A stretch of DNA of 64,000 nucleotides from a virus. Lineage: Duplodnaviria; Heunggongvirae; Uroviricota; Caudoviricetes. Within the stretch, counting starts at the first letter, position 1. Each line of letters starts with the position of its first letter. Positions 21,020 to 64,000 of this stretch are shown here, in pieces. The stretch covers positions 116,701-180,700 of the IMG/VR virus record IMGVR_UViG_3300010213_000001. One strand, 5' to 3'. Made by a program: the position numbers and the translations under genes. Under the pieces are notes generated by a model. That model was not told the DNA's origin. It made no database searches and saw only the letters and a list, made by a program, of their open reading frames with translations.

Positions 21020-21491
21020 TTAATTTAGTAAAAGCTTTATTTAGTATATTAAATACTCTTTTCTCTATACCCTTACTTTTACTTTCTCTGTTTCCAGCTA
21101 TATTTATAGCTGTATAGTTTCCATCTTTGATAAACTTAATTATATCATCCACTGTAGATTCTTTCCTTATATCTACTTTGTTAAGATATAAATAAGGCTT
21201 CCCGTTCTTCATACAGAAAGTCTTTGTCAATTTACTACCTCCTGATTTGGCTTCATCAAATATAATAGTACAATCTGTACTTATTACATTTTTTAGAGTT
21301 CTTCCAGCGTAATTATCGCTAGTAGTAGTAACTGCTCCTAATTTTGAATACTCTGGCTTTTTACCATTTTCAGTTATATACCCTTTTGGCATGAATCCTT
21401 TAGTTTCAAGACCATTACTTATAGCTGCTTTAATACCAGCTATGTCTGCTCCAGTTTGGAATCCAGACCATATTGTAATATTACTTTTCAT
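21012..21491 (-). CDS. SLOG superfamily protein (cpYpsA / putative molybdenum carrier family)
   Basis: SGFQTGADIAG, RT.KNV..TD.T, SGGSKLT, INIAGNRES. Confidence 0.85.
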   Translation of the reverse strand: MKSNITIWSGFQTGADIAGIKAAISNGLETKGFMPKGYITENGKKPEYSKLGAVTTTSDNYAGRTLKNVISTDCTIIFDEAKSGGSKLTKTFCMKNGKPYLYLNKVDIRKESTVDDIIKFIKDGNYTAINIAGNRESKSKGIEKRVFNILNKAFTKLNE

Positions 21492-21669
21492 GTGTTAATG
21501 CGTCTTCTTCTATAACCTCTTGTAAAGCTTTAGATAAATTGTATTCCGAACTTTTCTGCTTCTCTCTTTCTCTTGGAGAAATATCTGTTCTATGTCTACT
21601 AGTATTATATCTCCATTTTTCTAATACTCTTAAAGTAAAGAGTACCTTTTTATTCAATTTATTTTCCAT
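21481..21669 (-). CDS. hypothetical protein
   Basis: 62 aa ORF. Confidence 0.55.
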   Translation of the reverse strand: MENKLNKKVLFTLRVLEKWRYNTSRHRTDISPREREKQKSSEYNLSKALQEVIEEDALTHEK

Positions 21670-21679
21670 AAATATTTTA

Positions 21680-21912
21680 TTATTTAAATGTTCTTGGAAA
21701 AGGAATGATATCTCTAATATTTCCCATTCCTGTTACGTATTGTATTATTCTCTCAAACCCTTATATGGGATATATCTATCCCTTCTACTACAACTTGTAG
21801 TTTATCTAGTTTACTATCATTTGTTATAGATAGAAAAGACACATTAGAGCTTTCTCTCTTGTGTCTTACCCACCCATTCAAAGTGATAGTACCCCAACTT
21901 GGGGTACTCCAT
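21680..21912 (-). pseudogene. asnS: internally deleted asparaginyl-tRNA synthetase relic
   Basis: Hand translation. 21887-21753 = ITLNGWVRHKRESSNVSFLSITNDSKLDKLQVVV (OB-fold N-terminus). 21760-21680 = GFERIIQYVTGMGNIRDIIPFPRTFK* (class IIb motif 3 and AsnRS C-terminus). Confidence 0.85.
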
Positions 21913-21930
21913 ATTGTTTATTAATTGCAT

Positions 21931-22314
21931 TTATTCTGGTTGAATTATTCTTAAAGCTTCATTAAGTACTCTATTAAATTCCAGTTCAGTTATCTCAGAA
22001 ACGTCCTCTCTAAGAATATCAGCATCAAATACAGCTCTGTTTTCTATCAAGAATCTTTCTCCTCCTAACTTGGACAATGTAATGTTTAACACTATTACAC
22101 TATTTTTATATCCTCTATTAGATTGATATACCTTAAAGTAACTATTTTCAAAAGAATCATAGAAACATTTACCAGTAAGATTTGCTGATACTACTAGTTT
22201 CTCTTCTCTTACAATTTGCTTTAATCTATTAATCTCTTCTTGAAGATTAGCAATTATCTTCTGAGACTCAATTATCTTTTGTTCTGTTTCTTGTATTTTA
22301 TTATTGTTTAACAT
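21931..22314 (-). CDS. hypothetical protein, coiled-coil N-terminus
   Basis: GKCF...YFKV...EITELEF; resembles 25698-26138. Confidence 0.7.
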   Translation of the reverse strand: MLNNNKIQETEQKIIESQKIIANLQEEINRLKQIVREEKLVVSANLTGKCFYDSFENSYFKVYQSNRGYKNSVIVLNITLSKLGGERFLIENRAVFDADILREDVSEITELEFNRVLNEALRIIQPE

Positions 22315-55181: not shown

Positions 55182-56297
55182 TTATACATACAGACTATAA
55201 TCTACTTCATTTGCTGGTGGTAGCTCCGTTACAGTTGATACAGCAAAGTTACTATCTAAACTTATTCTAGCTCCAACATCACAGTATCTAGACGCAACAA
55301 CATTGAGGCATCTGTAACGATTTCTTAATTTAACTATGTTGTATTTATCTTCTTCTTTACCTTTAGAAGGGAATTTTGGCAGTTTATGCAAATATGGAGC
55401 ACCTATACTTAATACTAGGTCTGCATCCATAACTATTCCCTTACCACCATACAAGTGGTCTCTCTGCGGAACAAAGTCATTTTGCCTATTCTCCTCTTCT
55501 GAGGATTTAGTATTAGTTTGACTTAGTATTATATTACAATCTCTATAAAAATTTCTAGACATATATAACTCTTGGCTTAAGGCTTCTGCTCTTTTAAACT
55601 CATCCTTTTCTCCATTATCTTTTATCAATTTCATATGATCAACTATATTTATAAACATATAATTGTCAGGACTTTCATATCTTCCGTTGACTATTTTTCC
55701 TCTCCCATCAGCTAGATGGAATTCCCTTAGATAGGATGTAATTTCTTTAGCGCTTCTGGGTATGTCTATTATATTTATAGTCGCTAAATTAGAAACATAT
55801 ATAATAGCTTCATTGTAATATTTTAATATTTGTTCTTCACTTAATCTTTTTTCAGTAAAACCTTCTAGGTCAGAATAAGACATATTTATATTATATCTTA
55901 AATATAGATATCTCGATACAAGTCTTTGAAATAAAGAAGCTCCTGTCATTTCTAAAGAGAACCAATTTATAAATATCTTATATTGTTCATCAACTGGTTT
56001 ATTTGCATTATCTTCTAAAGCATTGAATATTATATTTTGCAATATTGTACTCTTTCCACTTTTAGTTTCTCCAAAAATAACCATCTGCATTTCCTTTCTA
56101 AGTCCATATGTTATATCATCTAAACTGTCAAAAGTTCTAAGCCCTTTGGTATATCCTTTCAAGCCCTGAAGAGCTCTCTTCATTGCTTCTTGTCCATGAG
56201 AAACTAAACTAAAAGGGTTCAAATTAGCAATGTCTATGGGATCTTCATAATCATCTATATATTTAAATTCACTTGAAGATTCAACATTTTCATTCAT
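55182..56297 (-). CDS. dnaB: DnaB-like replicative helicase (SF4)
   Basis: Walker A GETKSGKS, FSLEM, IVDHM, LSQ, DADLV, R(Y). Confidence 0.88.
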   Translation of the reverse strand: MNENVESSSEFKYIDDYEDPIDIANLNPFSLVSHGQEAMKRALQGLKGYTKGLRTFDSLDDITYGLRKEMQMVIFGETKSGKSTILQNIIFNALEDNANKPVDEQYKIFINWFSLEMTGASLFQRLVSRYLYLRYNINMSYSDLEGFTEKRLSEEQILKYYNEAIIYVSNLATINIIDIPRSAKEITSYLREFHLADGRGKIVNGRYESPDNYMFINIVDHMKLIKDNGEKDEFKRAEALSQELYMSRNFYRDCNIILSQTNTKSSEEENRQNDFVPQRDHLYGGKGIVMDADLVLSIGAPYLHKLPKFPSKGKEEDKYNIVKLRNRYRCLNVVASRYCDVGARISLDSNFAVSTVTELPPANEVDYSLYV

Positions 56298-56318
56298 TAA
56301 TTTTATATTTATAGTTTA

Positions 56319-56975
56319 TTACTCAGATTTATGATGAGCAAAAGTCCAGAAGTCTTCCTCATCATTAATGCCTATGCTTGTGATTTCTTCACTATCAACT
56401 TGTATGTTATTGATGGACTTATGTATATCATCTAGAGTTATTTCACCATCTTCTATTAAAGACATAATTTCTTCACATTCTGCAGTTAATTTAGACGGTT
56501 CATGTTGTTTATTTACAAAGTTACCTGATGTCTTAGCGTATCTTAATAAATCCTTAGTCCATTCATTATTAAGGTATCTTAATGTAGCATATTCAACAAC
56601 AATTAATGGATACTTGAACTTAGTTTCTATAAACCACTTTTTAAGCTTACTTTCTACTCCATATTTACCAGTTAGACTCTCTCTTAGATTCCTATTAACT
56701 CTTAAATTAGTCCAGTCTTTTAGTATCTTTCTAGTTGGGAAAATATCATTCCATTTTTTACACCAGGCTAGAAATTCTTTAGTATGTAAATCAGAATAGG
56801 CTATCTTTCCTGTAGATAAATTTATTACATTCTCTTTTTCAGTACTATCTATATCTAGAATTAACTTAGCTTTATCCGTAAACTTATAATGATTATCATC
56901 TGTGAATACTATCAGCTCCAACTGCTCAAATTTAAGTAAAACTTGTTCTTTAGTTAATTTCATATGCTCTATCAT
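56319..56975 (-). CDS. hypothetical replication-associated protein
   Basis: 218 aa ORF between the two helicases. Confidence 0.7.
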   Translation of the reverse strand: MIEHMKLTKEQVLLKFEQLELIVFTDDNHYKFTDKAKLILDIDSTEKENVINLSTGKIAYSDLHTKEFLAWCKKWNDIFPTRKILKDWTNLRVNRNLRESLTGKYGVESKLKKWFIETKFKYPLIVVEYATLRYLNNEWTKDLLRYAKTSGNFVNKQHEPSKLTAECEEIMSLIEDGEITLDDIHKSINNIQVDSEEITSIGINDEEDFWTFAHHKSE

Positions 56976-58341
56976 TCTGTATTATATTCAAACAATCTTC
57001 AATGTTATTAACACTAACTATTTCACTCTTTTCTTTCTCTAAGAAACTAGCTGCCCAAGTATAATTTTGACAATACTTTATAGTCTCCTTACCGTTTTTA
57101 TCTTTAATTGTATAGTAGCTCACTAGGATATGTATGTAAGCAGTCTCATCTATTGGTAATCTTGTCATCCTACCTTTAGCGCCTTGGAAGTAGTCTGTCT
57201 CTGAACTAGTAAAACTATGAGCTATACAGTGATTAAGTCCAGTAAAGTTAATACCTCTATTTGCTTTCTTACTAACTCCTATTACTTTTAACTCTCCACA
57301 ATTAAATCTATCAACAACATTATCTGCTGTAGCAGAGTCTACCTTGCTATGAAAGCCATTGTTTGTTATTTCATCAATTGTATCTGTAAACTTACAGAAT
57401 ATAATTACTTTATTCTTTTCATCTTCTATAAGTTTATTCTTTAATTCTATAGCATATTTAGTTAAAGAGTTCAATCTATATACTATATTAGCTCTAGATT
57501 TCTTATTTGTAGGACTAGCTTGTTTAAACTGTAGCTGTTTGGTATATTTTGCTATATCATTAGATATTGTAGATGTATCTTCATTTAAGAATTTCTTATT
57601 ATTTAGCTCAGAATATAGACCATTCAACTTACTATATAAGATAGCAATTTCCCTCTCAATATATTTATATTGCTCTACTTCAGAAGTATTAAATGACTTT
57701 TTTTCTTTAGTTTTCTTATCAATATATTCTATTTTTATATTCTTCTTTGTATCTAAAGGGACGTAATGAACTATTATCTTATTCTTGTTAATTATTGACT
57801 CTTCTTGAGCTTGTGCAACATCATAAGTAAATCTAATAGGAGGAAAGTATTTTAGAGTATTAAGTAACTCTATTTTACTATCTATAAAAGTTCCACTTAA
57901 GCATAAATTATATTTGGGATCTTGTTTATTAAAAACCTTTCCATATTCTGTAGTAAGTGCAAAATCAACTTCATCGCTAATCATTAGACCAATATCCTTC
58001 TTCTTCCATTTATAAGAGGTGTGATAGCACACAAACTCTATCTTACCAGAAGCTATCAAATCTTTACTAACTCCCCACTGTAGAATCTCTCTCACTGTAT
58101 CTACATCTCTAAGATACGTACTACTAACTTGAATAAGAATAGGGACATCACAATCGACTATTTTATTATAATACTCTGGAGTATTAACTACTAACTTTAT
58201 AGCATCAGCAATAATTTTACCTTTACCCAATCCCATCGATACTTGGTATGTACCTATTAACTTATTCTCTTCCCAATTATTTATAATATATTTCTGTATT
58301 TCATCTCTTTTAATATTCCTTAACTCTTCTTGCTGTTTCAT
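56950..58341 (-). CDS. superfamily 2 helicase
   Basis: MGLGKG, ISDEVD, LSGT, IIFC, NRGINF, GRMTR. Confidence 0.85.
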   Translation of the reverse strand: MKQQEELRNIKRDEIQKYIINNWEENKLIGTYQVSMGLGKGKIIADAIKLVVNTPEYYNKIVDCDVPILIQVSSTYLRDVDTVREILQWGVSKDLIASGKIEFVCYHTSYKWKKKDIGLMISDEVDFALTTEYGKVFNKQDPKYNLCLSGTFIDSKIELLNTLKYFPPIRFTYDVAQAQEESIINKNKIIVHYVPLDTKKNIKIEYIDKKTKEKKSFNTSEVEQYKYIEREIAILYSKLNGLYSELNNKKFLNEDTSTISNDIAKYTKQLQFKQASPTNKKSRANIVYRLNSLTKYAIELKNKLIEDEKNKVIIFCKFTDTIDEITNNGFHSKVDSATADNVVDRFNCGELKVIGVSKKANRGINFTGLNHCIAHSFTSSETDYFQGAKGRMTRLPIDETAYIHILVSYYTIKDKNGKETIKYCQNYTWAASFLEKEKSEIVSVNNIEDCLNIIQNDRAYEIN

Positions 58342-58351
58342 AGTAATTAAA

Positions 58352-58377
58352 AAAGTAGAATCGTTTGACTCTACTTT
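58352..58377 (-). terminator. probable intrinsic terminator
   Basis: Stem AAAGTAGA/TCTACTTT with a T run on the minus strand. Confidence 0.6.
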
Positions 58378-58403
58378 ATTTAGTTTATCTAGTTCATTTT
58401 ACT

Positions 58404-58640
58404 TTAATATCCTATTGATGACGCTGTTCTCAGCTTAACTAATCTATTAGGAGGTAGTGGTATTTCAAAGTAGTATTCTATTCTCATTTCTGTTGGTAAT
58501 ATAACAGAGTTATCAGAATATCTTTTGAAATTGCCTGCTGTACCGTCAAAGTAAGCAATAATTTCATTTTCCCCATCAGATAATAAATATCTAAACACTA
58601 GACGACTAGGTGTAAATGAAGTAATCGGTTTGTAGTTCAT
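58404..58640 (-). CDS. hypothetical protein
   Basis: 78 aa ORF. Confidence 0.6.
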   Translation of the reverse strand: MNYKPITSFTPSRLVFRYLLSDGENEIIAYFDGTAGNFKRYSDNSVILPTEMRIEYYFEIPLPPNRLVKLRTASSIGY

Positions 58641-59179
58641 GTTCTTAGTTTATTTAACATAGTATCTACCACATTATCTATCTCTTGCTTATCAATATTA
58701 TCTTTCTCTAACTTATCTCTCTTCTTCTGATCCAACTTATGCTTGTAGCTTTTAGTTGATGTGGTTTTCCTTAATTTGAATTTATGATTTAATGTACTTA
58801 AATATAAGATTTTCTTATATAAGAAGTTGTTTAATTTATCATCGCCTAGATAACTAAGTCTTAAACCATTTATATTAATCTCTTTTAGCAGCTTACCGAA
58901 CTGCTCTTTATTATTCAAACAATTAAGGAAACAGAAGTTTACATTATCTATAAACTTGTTTGAAGATACATTAGCTAATCTTATTCCATGATAAAATAAC
59001 ATTAGTATGTCTATAAACTCAAAATTCATTGGAAATAATCTTACTTTAAGTAAATGATCCCTTTTCACCTTATCTATAGCTGATTCAGTTTTGTTTAGAG
59101 CATCTTCCATCAAATAGTCTGGGATATCTTCTAGATTAGAATTTATACTCTTACTTAATACATTTATATGTTTACTCAT
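58637..59179 (-). CDS. hypothetical protein
   Basis: 180 aa ORF. Confidence 0.7.
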   Translation of the reverse strand: MSKHINVLSKSINSNLEDIPDYLMEDALNKTESAIDKVKRDHLLKVRLFPMNFEFIDILMLFYHGIRLANVSSNKFIDNVNFCFLNCLNNKEQFGKLLKEININGLRLSYLGDDKLNNFLYKKILYLSTLNHKFKLRKTTSTKSYKHKLDQKKRDKLEKDNIDKQEIDNVVDTMLNKLRT

Positions 59180-59997
59180 TATTCTACATATTCAATTTCC
59201 ATGTCATATATACCATCATATTTCTTACTCTCTTGTATTGTTAATGAAGTTCTCTTATATAAACAGTGATATAAAGAGTCTACTCTTTCTTCTCCAACCC
59301 AATTGATCTGAGGTTTCCCATAGAGATCTAATAAATCATTAACAACAACAAAATGATTATTACCGACAAATTTTCTACTATTATTTACTCCAACGCTTCT
59401 TGCATCTACTACTGGATGAACAGATTGTAAAACAGTTGAATTATCTGTTATATTTAATTGTTCTGCAAAATCTTTTGCATGTTTACCCCAAGCAAGAATT
59501 ATTAAGTTAGGATTAAGTTCTAATAGTTTATTTATACAATGTCTAACAAAATAATCCCACATTAGTTCAGAATGACTATTTGGTTTATAATCTTCAACTG
59601 TTAGACTAGTATTTATTAATATGACTCCTTGATCCGCCCAATCCTCTAAATTTGTATTTGTACGACGTTTATTATAAGTTCTTTCTAATTCTTTAAATAT
59701 AACATTAATTGATGGGGCTAGATAATTGTCTTTTGTTGAGAATGCTAATCCATCTGCTATATTAGGAGTGTAATAAGGGTCTTGCGCTATTATTACTACA
59801 TTAGCAAGTGTCCAATCGTAGCTAAAAACTTTAAACAAATCATCTAGTGATGGCTGTACGTTTCCCACTGAATACAGGTACTCCACAGCTTGTAACAGCC
59901 ATATGAAGTATTCCTCTTTCAATACGGCGTCCAAATCTATTAGACGCCTTGTATTGATGTGGCAAGCTTCTTCAAGCTTATCAAGTATGATGCTCAT
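59179..59997 (-). CDS. ung: uracil-DNA glycosylase, family 1
   Basis: VVIIAQDPY, GLAFS, W..QGV.L.N..LTV, AWG..A, HP. Confidence 0.9.
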   Translation of the reverse strand: MSIILDKLEEACHINTRRLIDLDAVLKEEYFIWLLQAVEYLYSVGNVQPSLDDLFKVFSYDWTLANVVIIAQDPYYTPNIADGLAFSTKDNYLAPSINVIFKELERTYNKRRTNTNLEDWADQGVILINTSLTVEDYKPNSHSELMWDYFVRHCINKLLELNPNLIILAWGKHAKDFAEQLNITDNSTVLQSVHPVVDARSVGVNNSRKFVGNNHFVVVNDLLDLYGKPQINWVGEERVDSLYHCLYKRTSLTIQESKKYDGIYDMEIEYVE

Positions 59998-60398
59998 TAT
60001 TCTATTCTAGCTTTAGATGAATTTAGCAAAGTATTACATGCTGTCATTAGACAACTCCTCTTAGATACATCCCTGAAGTGAGCTGCTTTCTCTATTATAG
60101 ACTTAGCAAGTTTGCCTTTCTTGCCTCCCTCCACAACATTTAAAGCTAATTCTTTTAGAACAGTATCCATAGTTTCATCTATCTTAGACTGTATTACCTC
60201 ACCTCTCTCATCTCGTATCAACACTGGAATTAGATCACCATACTCTTGACTACATAAGGCTATGAACATAACTGTAACGTTAATATAATCTTGATCTAAT
60301 CTCACCACATCTATTTCACATTTATCTAATGGTACACCAGAGATTATATTATATACGACAACCATGTCGCCCTTTTCAATTAGATTTTCATATTTCAT
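59997..60398 (-). CDS. hypothetical protein
   Basis: 133 aa ORF. Confidence 0.7.
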   Translation of the reverse strand: MKYENLIEKGDMVVVYNIISGVPLDKCEIDVVRLDQDYINVTVMFIALCSQEYGDLIPVLIRDERGEVIQSKIDETMDTVLKELALNVVEGGKKGKLAKSIIEKAAHFRDVSKRSCLMTACNTLLNSSKARIE

Positions 60399-60400
60399 TT

Positions 60401-60997
60401 CTATAAAGTTGAATTAAATTTATGCTTTAGTAAATATACTATAGCCAACGCATCATTTATTGCTGTATGATTAGGCTTATATATGACTGATTTCTTATTA
60501 TCTAGCAGTAATTCTTTATTCATTCTTGCTACACATTTAGATAGAGATGGTATAATCTCATCTTTTTCATTCATATATAATATAGAAGGGTCTAGCACTC
60601 TTGATCTAATAATTATATTATTATCCCAATTTACTAGACCCTCTAACTGTCTTCTATCCATATGATTAAAGTTCTTTCCTGCTACATTAATTATGATTTT
60701 ATCTTGTGGTAAGGTGGGTGTATAACCACATGTATTTACCAACCAATATTTAAAATCTTCAGCTAACAAAGATTCATGTATTACATTATTTTTGTTAAGT
60801 GATATATGCTTAATGCTTTGGGATAATAAAAGTTGAGTTTCCTCATTATCATATATATATTTGTCTCTCTTGACATATTTATGATAAACTTTTATATTTT
60901 TAATATCTCCATAAAGATCATCTTGAATAGCTGCAAATTCAACTATACTAGATTCTTTAAATGTTGTGAACTCTAAATCTATAGATATATATTTCAT
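60401..60997 (-). CDS. DnaQ-like DEDDh 3'-5' exonuclease
   Basis: ISIDLEFT, AGKNF..MD, LDP, HTAINDA. Confidence 0.85.
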   Translation of the reverse strand: MKYISIDLEFTTFKESSIVEFAAIQDDLYGDIKNIKVYHKYVKRDKYIYDNEETQLLLSQSIKHISLNKNNVIHESLLAEDFKYWLVNTCGYTPTLPQDKIIINVAGKNFNHMDRRQLEGLVNWDNNIIIRSRVLDPSILYMNEKDEIIPSLSKCVARMNKELLLDNKKSVIYKPNHTAINDALAIVYLLKHKFNSTL

Positions 60998-61001
60998 TTT
61001 A

Positions 61002-61589
61002 TTATTTAATTATTTCTTCTATATTGATTCTTCCCTTTACGGGACCCTTCTTAGGTTTAAAGGTATCCTCGAATTCTTCAAAGAGAACACTATCAATAGC
61101 ATTTACTCCTGAAACAGAAGTTTCAACTTTGTTGTTGCTTTCTTCTTTAGGTTTTGTAGATTTCTCTTTAAGTTTTTTTAAGCTATCAATAACGTGTTCT
61201 CTACCAGAATCAATAAAACTTATTACTTGATTTAGTGTGTAAATATCTATTGAATCCTCTTCTTCCAGATAAGCTACTCCCTGCTTTAAAGCATCGTAAA
61301 TCTCTATAGCAGCAATCTTCTTCTCTTTTTCAATATTAGATAAATCATCAATAGATTTACTAACTTTGTTGCTTTCTTTATCCGTTGATTGAATTGCAAT
61401 AGGTGATGTAGCAGGTAGTGTAGAAGAGGCTGGAAGAAGTTCTCTAGGTAAGTTAACACTTTGAGAAGTATCTTTAGTCTTCTCCACTATATCTAATCCT
61501 AAATCTCTGACAGTTTCTAAAAGTTTCATGAAGTTTCTAAGTTCTTCAGCCTGTCTATTTTTGAATGCTTCTAAAATTGTATCATTCAT
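61002..61589 (-). CDS. hypothetical protein
   Basis: 195 aa ORF. Confidence 0.7.
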   Translation of the reverse strand: MNDTILEAFKNRQAEELRNFMKLLETVRDLGLDIVEKTKDTSQSVNLPRELLPASSTLPATSPIAIQSTDKESNKVSKSIDDLSNIEKEKKIAAIEIYDALKQGVAYLEEEDSIDIYTLNQVISFIDSGREHVIDSLKKLKEKSTKPKEESNNKVETSVSGVNAIDSVLFEEFEDTFKPKKGPVKGRINIEEIIK

Positions 61590-61610
61590 AATTGCATAAT
61601 TGAATTAAAG

Positions 61611-62312
61611 TTAAATTAAATCAAGACTTTTCAGTAAATCTCTAGATACTCTTTCTTTACTAAAACTGTCCTTTATAACTAAGATGGCTCCAATTATATC
61701 ATTAGATTGTTGTTCCGTTCCCTCAAAGATTTTATCTAGTATCTTTTGTTTAAAGAAATCTATTCTATCAGAAGTGGACAAATCTAAAAATTCAGGATCA
61801 TCTCTAAATTTATATAGATTAACAAAGTGAGACGCTAGAGTAGCAACTACCTCTTCAACAGAATTCATAGTTTCTTCTGTTATATAAGATCCAGGATTAT
61901 TTTCTTGTTTTGCATTCTTGTCATAGTAAGACACTAATTCTCCTATTATTCTACGACCATTATTCAAGCTATCCATCATCTGGGAGCTTATAAATGTAAA
62001 ATCTTCTGATATCCTGTCGTTAGCTACTTGTTTATCATAAGTGTCTAGATTTTTATATTCATCAGTCTCTCTAGTTTCTTTAGCTTGTTTTAGCATAGCT
62101 TCTCTAGTTTGTTTATATTGATGATATTCGTTATAGTACTTTGTAAGGATATTTTTATATTTAGTTTTCTCCTTATCAGTTCTAATATCTAGAGCATCTA
62201 TTACCTCTACTTTGTCTCTATTACAGACTCCAGCCCAATACTCAACAATGGAATCAAAGGATACTGTAACATCTTCTGTTACAAAATTGGTATTGCTGGG
62301 GCCTATATCTAC
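61611..62312 (-). CDS. helical protein; open frame extends 72 codons above its first ATG (62096), probably reached by -1 frameshift
   Basis: Frame is open from 62321 with no ATG/GTG/TTG until 62096; begins across the slippery heptamer. Confidence 0.7.
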   Translation of the reverse strand, partial: VDIGPSNTNFVTEDVTVSFDSIVEYWAGVCNRDKVEVIDALDIRTDKEKTKYKNILTKYYNEYHQYKQTREAMLKQAKETRETDEYKNLDTYDKQVANDRISEDFTFISSQMMDSLNNGRRIIGELVSYYDKNAKQENNPGSYITEETMNSVEEVVATLASHFVNLYKFRDDPEFLDLSTSDRIDFFKQKILDKIFEGTEQQSNDIIGAILVIKDSFSKERVSRDLLKSLDLI

Positions 62313-63202
62313 TTTTTTCTCTTAGCCTCCTCTCTTGCAAGCTCTTCTCTCTTCTTCTCTAATGACTTTTTCAATATCCCAACAGAAGTTCCCTCAGGAT
62401 TTTTCTTTATACTTGTCTCCAGTCTCTCTATATCTTTCCTTAGCTGTTCCTCAGTACTTGATCTAGATGGATTTTCTTCATTTTTGCTTATCTTGTCATG
62501 AAGATGCCTCATTCTCTCTTCTGGTGACATCTTTTTCAAATCTTCTAAATCTTTATTACTTTTTTTCTTCTTATTAGAAGATTCCATAATAGCAAAGAAA
62601 TCATCACCAAATTTCTTTTTAGCATAAGCTAGAATAGCTGCCAATACATTTAGGAAAGGAGTACACCAAACATTATAGAACACCACTCTATTCATTGTAA
62701 CAACTTTCTGTTCGACAGTTGGTATCCAAGATGTAGCTGAAGTTTTATAAGTTATTGCATTTATAGACTCCAGGTAACTCATCCATATTGTGTATGTACA
62801 GTATGTAGCTAAAGCAAAGAACATAAGTGATACCATTAATGCAAATCTCTCTTTCTTCTCTATTTTACCATCTGCTAATATTTTAGATATAATTCTAATA
62901 AAGAAGAAACTAAAGAACGATTCTGCTAAAACCCACTGACCATATCTGAACAAGGCTTGTGTAATATGTGTGTTAGGATCAATAGTCACTAGATTAAATG
63001 TCTCAGATGCTGAGCTTACCAGCAGTAGTAGCTCGCACAATAATAATGGGTCTAGAGATATTAGATCTGATATGTTTTTCTTTTTATAAAATATTAGAAA
63101 AAGAATATAACATATCACAATAATAAGTAGCCCCAAAGCTCCCAACATTACAATATCTGTAATACTCTGGTACCGAATCAACGGTGTATTTTCTGTGTTC
63201 AT
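62309..63202 (-). CDS. multi-pass membrane protein with C-terminal charged coiled coil
   Basis: About five hydrophobic helices, then a K/E-rich tail ending ...KRKK*. Confidence 0.8.
   Translation of the reverse strand: MNTENTPLIRYQSITDIVMLGALGLLIIVICYILFLIFYKKKNISDLISLDPLLLCELLLLVSSASETFNLVTIDPNTHITQALFRYGQWVLAESFFSFFFIRIISKILADGKIEKKERFALMVSLMFFALATYCTYTIWMSYLESINAITYKTSATSWIPTVEQKVVTMNRVVFYNVWCTPFLNVLAAILAYAKKKFGDDFFAIMESSNKKKKSNKDLEDLKKMSPEERMRHLHDKISKNEENPSRSSTEEQLRKDIERLETSIKKNPEGTSVGILKKSLEKKREELAREEAKRKK
62312..62318 (-). promoter_or_regulatory. candidate -1 programmed ribosomal frameshift heptamer A_AAA_AAG
   Basis: Zero-frame A AAA AAG immediately before the TAG stop; same heptamer as E. 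coli dnaX and IS3-family sites. Confidence 0.7.
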
Positions 63203-63249
63203 TGCAACTTAAGTAAAAATTTATCAATTATATATCTAATAAGTACGTA

Positions 63250-64000
63250 CTATTTTACCCAATAGTCTTCTATAACAAATTCTGCAGTCATTTTAGTAAA
63301 TCCATTTAGCACAGGATCTGCAGAATCGCACATTTCTCTTTCTATTAGTATAGGAAGACTCTTACCTATACTAGATATATGTGCTAAATATTCTGGTAGT
63401 TCGTGAACTACTTCATCATGAACAGTTAATAATATACTTAATTTATCTTCAAGATGTAATCTTCTTCTTAATTTTCTAAAATTAGATAGATATATCTTTA
63501 ATGCTTCTGCTTGACTACCTTGGATAGGTAAGTTCCTAGTTTGTGTATCCAAAGATACTGCGTCTAGAAAGTTAACTTTCCTAATATCAGCTAACATATT
63601 ATTTATAAACTCTTCTTTTAGTTCTGGATTATTTCTAATCTTATTTAGTTCTTTTCTTTCATTATCAAATAATAATCCTTTATTATATAGATAATTCAAT
63701 GCAATAGGATTATATTTTCTAGTTCCTATATTAGAGTGAGTTACAGTATATCCACACAGCATAGTATCAATACTACTGTTTTTTAAATAATTATACGCTT
63801 CTGCTTCAACCTGCTGTACTACTTTCACTGCTATTTCTGCTTCTTGTAAAGGAACTTTAAGCGCATTAGCTACTGTTCTAGGATGAGCTCCATACAATAT
63901 TCCAAAATGTGTATTCTTTATGGCTTTTCTTAAATCCTGATTTGTTTCACTATTTACTATAAGATTATTAGATAGATGTTCCAATTCTTTCTTTTTTGAT
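63250..64000 (-). CDS. polA: family A DNA polymerase, C-terminal part (gene starts beyond the window)
   Basis: Motif B RKAIKNTHFGILYG, RNLPIQGSQAE, motif C TVHDE; frame open to the window end. Confidence 0.92.
   Translation of the reverse strand, partial: SKKKELEHLSNNLIVNSETNQDLRKAIKNTHFGILYGAHPRTVANALKVPLQEAEIAVKVVQQVEAEAYNYLKNSSIDTMLCGYTVTHSNIGTRKYNPIALNYLYNKGLLFDNERKELNKIRNNPELKEEFINNMLADIRKVNFLDAVSLDTQTRNLPIQGSQAEALKIYLSNFRKLRRRLHLEDKLSILLTVHDEVVHELPEYLAHISSIGKSLPILIEREMCDSADPVLNGFTKMTAEFVIEDYWVK

Follow-up and report, generated by a model that had tools for sequence, protein, structure and literature searches.

What becomes of a ribosome that arrives at the end of a phage membrane-protein gene when the last sense nucleotides form the heptamer A_AAA_AAG, the next codon is a stop, and the frame one base back lies open for a further 233 codons? 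The question is raised by a locus in the genome of a large uncultured phage of the Caudoviricetes, located within a stretch of 64,000 nucleotides (nt) (positions 116,701 to 180,700 of the IMG/VR record IMGVR_UViG_3300010213_000001) that is referred to here as the window and that belongs to a viral record of 244.7 kb with 30% GC. The reading favored here, and considered quite probable on comparative sequence grounds, is that the site directs a conserved programmed −1 ribosomal frameshift, through which some copies of a membrane protein would carry a cytoplasmic acidic helical domain and others would lack it. Frameshifting of this type is a canonical mechanism; the novelty lies in the gene family and in the genomic context.

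The arrangement at the site can be read directly from the ORF (open reading frame) list and its translations. The zero-frame ORF consists of 297 codons on the minus strand (63202..62309) and has the 3′ end GAG GAG GCT AAG AGA AAA AAG TAG. Its last seven sense nucleotides constitute the slippery heptamer A_AAA_AAG (62318..62312, minus strand) in the X_XXY_YYZ phase of that frame, and the UAG stop codon (62311..62309, minus strand), which is UAG in all three lineages described below, abuts the heptamer on its 3′ side. In the −1 frame the same letters are read as GGA GGC TAA GAG AAA AAA GTA GAT, with a TAA three codons ahead of the first −1 codon. From there the −1 part extends for 233 codons plus a stop (61611..62312, minus strand; translation P0001) and closes at the TAA at 61613..61611. 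The first ATG, GTG or TTG in this frame is the ATG at 62096, which leaves 72 start-less codons before it; this annotated ATG (62094..62096, minus strand) is residue 75 of P0001 and the gene-caller start of a 161-amino-acid (aa) gene. The ORF end, the heptamer, the TAA closure and the 72 start-less codons had all been described in an initial annotation of this DNA, and each was confirmed on the minus strand. That annotation had also expected two products of 297 aa and about 530 aa, in agreement with the predicted sizes of 297 aa (34 kDa) for the short product and 530 aa (61.5 kDa) for the long product, the latter comprising the 297 residues and the 233-codon −1 part. Two other arrangements were ruled out: an intron or intein, there being no inserted sequence and the frames abutting at the heptamer, and stop-codon reassignment, as further zero-frame stops follow within 2-17 codons in all three lineages.

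The protein family consists of three known lineages only, and it is the comparison among them that carries the argument. In addition to the window, there is L002, an ENA contig (MEGAHIT assembly) of 1190 bp with 54% aa identity to the window, and L003, part of a 28.6-kb Logan contig with 28% aa identity; L004 is a separate contig that is identical to L003 over 2413 nt and was reported in four samples, and the L003/L004 sequence occurs in at least five samples. The heptamer, the abutting UAG and the open −1 frame are retained in L002 and in L003/L004, where the upstream frames end in GAA AAA AAG TAG and GGA AAA AAG TAG, respectively; conservation of the heptamer in relatives had been proposed in the initial annotation as a check on its −1 frameshift reading. 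The 12-nt string AAAAAAGUAGAU is invariant and in one phase across all three lineages, and the adjoining linker codons are unconserved (alignment A3). The distance from the heptamer to a conserved Trp codon is 74 nt in the window, 86 nt in L002 and 83 nt in L003, values that are all 2 modulo 3 despite indels. In each lineage a TAA closes the −1 frame 3-13 codons upstream, and no further stop interrupts it for 232-252 codons; the +1 frame shuts within 1-18 codons, and the zero frame stops immediately. The stop codon after the heptamer is UAG in all three even though the genome prefers TAA (78% TAA and 13% TAG among 242 long ORFs), and a conserved UAG in this position suggests that a slow-to-decode A site contributes, following a principle set out in PMC5009743.

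A frame break next to a run of adenines could in principle be an assembly homopolymer miscall, homopolymer runs being the classic sites of indel errors, or it could mark a recently broken pseudogene. The run is 6 nt long in the window, 7 nt in L002 and 6 nt in L003, with one frame relation in all. Because these runs keep the same frame break in three independent assemblies (IMG/VR, ENA MEGAHIT and Logan), which differ in pipelines and samples, a homopolymer miscall is not credible; decay is countered by the persistence of the arrangement, and by the conservation of both its halves, in proteins that have diverged to 28% identity. Artefact or decay is therefore barely conceivable as an explanation of the locus.

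The family is very small. No further relatives were found in IMG/VR and JGI metagenome scans that used the proteins, alignment A1 and the polA gene as queries, and blastn and tblastn searches of 50,697 phage genomes gave no match to the region or to P0001; in the same phage genomes the polA gene matched crAss-like phages only, at about 22% identity. When the −1 part, the membrane part and a three-sequence profile were used as queries in word-index searches, nothing was retrieved beyond the window's own proteins, P0003 and P0006. An HMMER search run exhaustively over 1.84 billion representatives had the same outcome. In all, the word-index and HMMER searches and the scans of IMG/VR, the JGI metagenomes and the phage genomes yielded two relatives of the −1 part and no homologue in which the two parts are fused into a single ORF. 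A DNA-pattern scan (the 12-mer, a gap, and codons for Glu-Tyr/Phe-Trp) produced 177 loci, all of which were judged by tblastn to be chance occurrences.

The stretch upstream of the annotated ATG behaves as protein. It aligns across the three lineages with 13 invariant residues, and an AlphaFold2 model of the −1 part, built from the three-sequence alignment, has a mean pLDDT (predicted local distance difference test) score of 79.5, with values of 85-92 over residues 21-130. In the model, residues 1-17 form a disordered linker that is followed by helices at residues 21-31, 36-44 and 48-83, and the annotated Met75 sits inside the last of these. The ATG at 62096 thus most likely encodes an internal methionine rather than a gene start. 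The extension contains no ATG, GTG or TTG in the window or in L002. Alignment and model together show the −1 part as coding and, by prediction, folded protein for which two of the three lineages provide no separate start, and the public gene calls of 161 aa, 155 aa and 228 aa would be truncated pieces of a domain that is start-less in two lineages.

These observations also bear on the possibility that two separate genes are present, the domain being started at an Ile/Met codon before the Glu-Tyr/Phe-Trp motif, or by reinitiation after the UAG, with the heptamer an incidental Lys-Lys. At this position L003 has a normal ATG that is taken by gene callers, and the folded domain starts about three residues ahead of the Ile/Met position; both would fit an independent start. 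The corresponding codons in the window (ATT) and L002 (ATA), however, are very poor starts, and the 21-25 codons between the heptamer and the Ile/Met position are open in the −1 frame in three of three lineages, with indels in threes, where the chance of each such stretch being open is about 15% (at about 0.08 stops per codon). A separate second gene also leaves the 12-nt block unaccounted for, which includes a UAG in a TAA-preferring genome and is invariant among neighboring codons that vary. Between the two frames no promoter-like or terminator-like site was found above chance, the former counting against a second gene as well. Taken together, two independently started genes are very unlikely.

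A 3′ stimulatory RNA structure 5-9 nt after the heptamer is among the features of bacterial −1 frameshift cassettes. When the 95-110 nt following the heptamer were folded, the window RNA gave a minimum free energy of −27.3 kcal/mol over 95 nt (z −3.6 versus dinucleotide shuffles). A spacer of 4 nt separates the heptamer from a predicted long-range stem-loop (62307..62222, minus strand), the candidate 3′ stimulator. In L002 an 11-bp perfect stem is predicted to start 6 nt after the heptamer (z −4.7). Ranked by stability against random windows of the same genome, the segments fall into the top 0.4% (window), 0.07% (L002) and 1-2.6% (L003); with GC-matched windows the figures are 1.7%, 0.14% and 5-10%, respectively. 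From these folding predictions it is likely that the stable downstream RNA acts as a 3′ stimulator. The hairpin to which the initial annotation had drawn attention (TGTAACA-GAAGA-TGTTACA, 7 bp, 62283..62265, minus strand) is present but represents only the inner part of the larger predicted structure, and the CAATAC/GTATTG pairing that it had offered as a possibility belongs to the predicted long-range stem.

Set against the genome at large, the arrangement at the site exceeds what chance would give. Among the genome's ORFs of 80 aa or more, in-frame A_AAA_AAG occurs 23 times, and in 21 of these 23 cases the −1 frame shuts within 27 codons. Long −1 frames follow the heptamer only at the site studied here (233 codons) and at genome position 21152 (259 codons). 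The latter (L006:5153-5939; C1 ~21152-21939, outside the window) was rejected as a frameshift site, as the open frame there is a LAGLIDADG homing endonuclease gene with its own start; this endonuclease gene overlaps the end of a 1044-aa gene. Shine-Dalgarno (SD)-like cores (GGAG/GAGG/AGGA) at −20 to −4 precede 6 of 241 long ORFs (2.5%) versus 8% of random positions, and translation initiation in this phage appears to be SD-independent. The regions upstream of its genes are A/T-only. This apparent SD-independence, together with the affinity of the polA gene to crAss-like phages, hints at a Bacteroidota-like host. ARAGORN reported two tRNA-like genes in the 244.7 kb (C1 227144-227212 and 239069-239143), namely a tRNA-Met and one with an undetermined two-base anticodon call; no phage-encoded tRNA-Lys with a bearing on the slippery site was detected by this program in the 244.7 kb.

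The same two proteins would also arise if recoding took place in the RNA rather than on the ribosome, that is, by transcriptional slippage in which RNA polymerase adds one A within the A6/A7 run. In bacteria such slippage is known to take place on A/T runs, and IS elements make use of it, according to the account of Baranov et al. 2005 that is relayed in PMC4066793. A run of 6-7 adenines is found at the site in all three lineages, and AAA-AAA codon pairs are avoided in the genome (67 observed versus 171 expected), as would be expected if long A-runs were error-prone. This avoidance is strong, and after a codon ending in A the figures are 8 versus 44. Transcriptional slippage sites that are actually used are usually runs of nine or more, which counts against this explanation at a run of six or seven. 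Moreover, what is conserved is not run length (6, 7, 6) but a phased heptamer ending in G and followed by UAGAU, which fits ribosomal re-pairing, and stable RNA placed just downstream is a feature of ribosomal frameshifting. Slippage by RNA polymerase is an unlikely explanation.

For programmed ribosomal frameshifting, the following course of events can be proposed. Ribosomes translating the membrane-protein ORF would arrive at A_AAA_AAG, which is the dnaX site and, among the heptamers tested in E. coli, the one most prone to shifting, with UAG as the next codon, and the majority would terminate there to give the 297-aa protein. A fraction would slip one base back by tandem re-pairing of tRNA-Lys from AAA-AAG to AAA-AAA or, alternatively, by a slip in the P site only, made during the pause at the slow UAG in the A site. 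The slipped ribosomes would then read GUA GAU and go on for 233 codons to generate the 530-aa protein. The stable RNA 4-6 nt downstream would probably aid the process. We infer that slippage occurs, that it is ribosomal, and that it sets the ratio between the short and the long form. By analogy with lambda gpG/gpGT, a membrane assembly may be built mostly of the short form and be linked to a partner by the rare long form, which would bring a protein-binding domain to it.

A number of observations weigh against programmed frameshifting and are best considered together. With three lineages only, conservation statistics are thin. In L003 the RNA past the heptamer is predicted to form two local hairpins with z-scores of −0.5 to −2, which is not significant versus shuffles, and RNAalifold applied to the three sequences gave no consensus 3′ structure in register. 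On the 5′ side, the GGAGG reported in the initial annotation is present 7 nt upstream of the heptamer (62330..62326, minus strand, read from the sequence), but it does not stand as a stimulator: L002 has GGAGGAG 11-13 nt upstream, L003 has no such sequence, and SD cores are found at only 2.5% of genes. Because GGAGG is not conserved and the genome is SD-poor, a 5′ stimulator of the dnaX type is unsupported, and in the window the motif probably just encodes Glu-Glu. An SD-like stimulator on the 5′ side is optional for −1 frameshift cassettes. In-frame A_AAA_AAG is, in addition, not avoided in the genome (22 observed versus 24.6 expected), with no sign of general harm; long A-runs seem to be selected against in this genome, but the slippery heptamer as such does not. 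A host tRNA-Lys(CUU), if present, would make A_AAA_AAG less slippery (PMC5009743). The main caveat is the in-frame ATG of L003, situated 26 codons past the heptamer and one residue ahead of the Glu-Phe-Trp motif, to which ATT in the window and ATA in L002 are aligned; owing to this ATG, the free domain could also be made in that lineage from its own start. Where the initial annotation had regarded homologues without the heptamer, or with an independently started second gene, as contrary to its reading, neither known relative lacks the heptamer, yet L003 allows the independent start.

The predicted products offer some indication of what the frameshift would achieve. In the short product, five predicted membrane helices occupy roughly the first 200 aa, and a 97-aa Lys/Glu-rich helical tail follows, which is basic (pI, the isoelectric point, is 9.6 in the window and 10.5 in L003). 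The five hydrophobic segments are also seen in the L003 homologue (337 aa), and the membrane region shares 28% identity with the L003 protein over residues 26-198 (E 1e-20). In the public gene call the membrane protein is 226 aa long and starts at an internal GTG (residue 72); the ATG start of the 297-aa form is preferred because the alignment with L003 begins at residue 26 and covers the first membrane helix. What the −1 part would contribute is an acidic, all-helical domain (about 215 aa; pI 4.9 in the window and 4.6-4.9 across the lineages), joined on through a linker of some 18 codons. The basic tail and the added domain would both face the cytoplasm, because Lys-rich loops follow helices 1, 3 and 5, as judged by the positive-inside rule. 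Neither part could be assigned to a family with Pfam or PHROGs, where the one match, to DUF3826 (E 0.007), was sub-threshold, and Atlas feature searches returned nothing. Fold searches with the model of the C-terminal part (pdb, afdb_clusters, pdb_via_wide, atlas and viral) retrieved generic helical hairpins only, the best matches having a Z-score of 8.9 over 104 residues and, to a DUF3826 model, a Foldseek E of 0.024 with a template modeling (TM) score of 0.25. The structure model of the membrane part (pLDDT 54) was too poor for fold searching.

The setting of the gene is that of replication. Its neighbors in the window are polA, an RNase T-like exonuclease, UDG, an SF2 helicase and DnaB, and L003 has a matching order: the end of polA (51% identity), the 337-aa membrane protein, the −1 part, UDG (36%), the SF2 helicase and DnaB. 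The downstream neighbor in L002 is the same as that of the window, with 32% identity. Gene order and sequence similarity indicate that the membrane gene sits in a conserved replication module, and the location beside the DNA polymerase rather than in a tail operon, as put forward in the initial annotation, is borne out by this polA-UDG-helicase-DnaB neighborhood. The module is collinear between window positions 55182-63999 (minus strand) and L003:1-8143, and consists of polA, the membrane gene, one or two small genes, a UDG-superfamily gene, a small gene, the SF2 helicase gene, a small gene and a DnaB-like helicase gene; the RNase T-like exonuclease gene (60401-60997) is in the window's module and is additional to those of L003.

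Since the position of the gene within the polA-UDG-helicase-DnaB block is conserved, a partner related to replication is the first guess, in line with phi29 p1 and p16.7, and that the protein holds or organizes the machinery of phage replication at the membrane is likewise a guess from gene order. The initial annotation had named a replication anchor or an exclusion channel as examples of what a recoded membrane complex might be; of this, the analysis shows the position in the replication module. One may go further and picture the minority long form as docking the replisome (polA, helicases), or some other partner, at the membrane by means of its acidic domain, in a fixed ratio set by the frameshift; the locus would then specify a recoded replication scaffold in large SD-independent phages, the first such conserved frameshift outside virion assembly genes. 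This fuller proposal is speculative and unlikely. A conserved frameshift in a membrane protein of a replication module would nonetheless widen the range of phage processes that use short and long protein pairs in fixed ratio, annotated phage frameshifts lying almost all in tail chaperone or capsid genes. The compact cassette (heptamer, stop codon and a structure of about 90 nt) would also serve as a test case for −1 stimulation in SD-independent hosts, and the tiny size of the family limits its immediate impact.

Among known systems, the phi29 proteins p16.7 and p1 resemble the membrane protein by functional analogy only, in that they are phage integral membrane proteins with a cytoplasmic helical part and are encoded among replication genes; for them, a role as membrane anchors of the replication machinery has been proposed (PMC4974454). 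Homology to these proteins is not detectable, recoding is not employed by phi29, and DNA binding in the manner of p16.7 is unlikely for the domain added here because it is acidic (pI 4.6-4.9). The IS3-family OrfA/OrfAB pair often uses A_AAA_AAG together with a 3′ stem-loop or pseudoknot, and its fusion protein is a −1 extension (PMC4066793), but IS3 ORFs overlap by tens of codons, in contrast to the ORFs considered here, which abut at the heptamer. An IS3-family OrfAB as such was ruled out, there being no transposase or DDE domain (Pfam, PHROGs), no inverted repeats and no mobile-element context.

The E. coli dnaX gene, which yields tau and gamma, shares with the locus the very same A_AAA_AAG and a replication-related context, and it has a stem-loop shortly 3′ of the heptamer, comparable to the one predicted here (PMC5009743). 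In dnaX, however, the shifted ribosome stops almost at once and the frameshift product is the shorter one, whereas here the shift would add 233 residues; the 5′ SD-like stimulator of dnaX has no conserved counterpart, and there is no similarity in sequence or fold. The phage frameshifts in current annotation are of another kind: tail chaperones account for 2397 of the 2476 joined genes in SEA-PHAGES annotations (PMC10885494). A tail assembly chaperone of the G/GT type was ruled out for this locus, which has replication genes as neighbors, does not precede a tape-measure gene, and shows no PHROG or Pfam match. It is in the logic of its products that the locus comes closest to lambda gpG/gpGT, which has homologues in most tailed phages and in which slippage into the −1 frame close to the 3′ end of the ORF likewise leads to a short major and a long minor product with a common N-terminal part (PMC5009743). 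Lambda slips on G_GGA_AAG and the gene family differs, the shared part here being an integral membrane protein; in lambda it is through the added domain that gpGT gains a further binding function, and the signal fixes the proportion of the two forms (PMC5009743).

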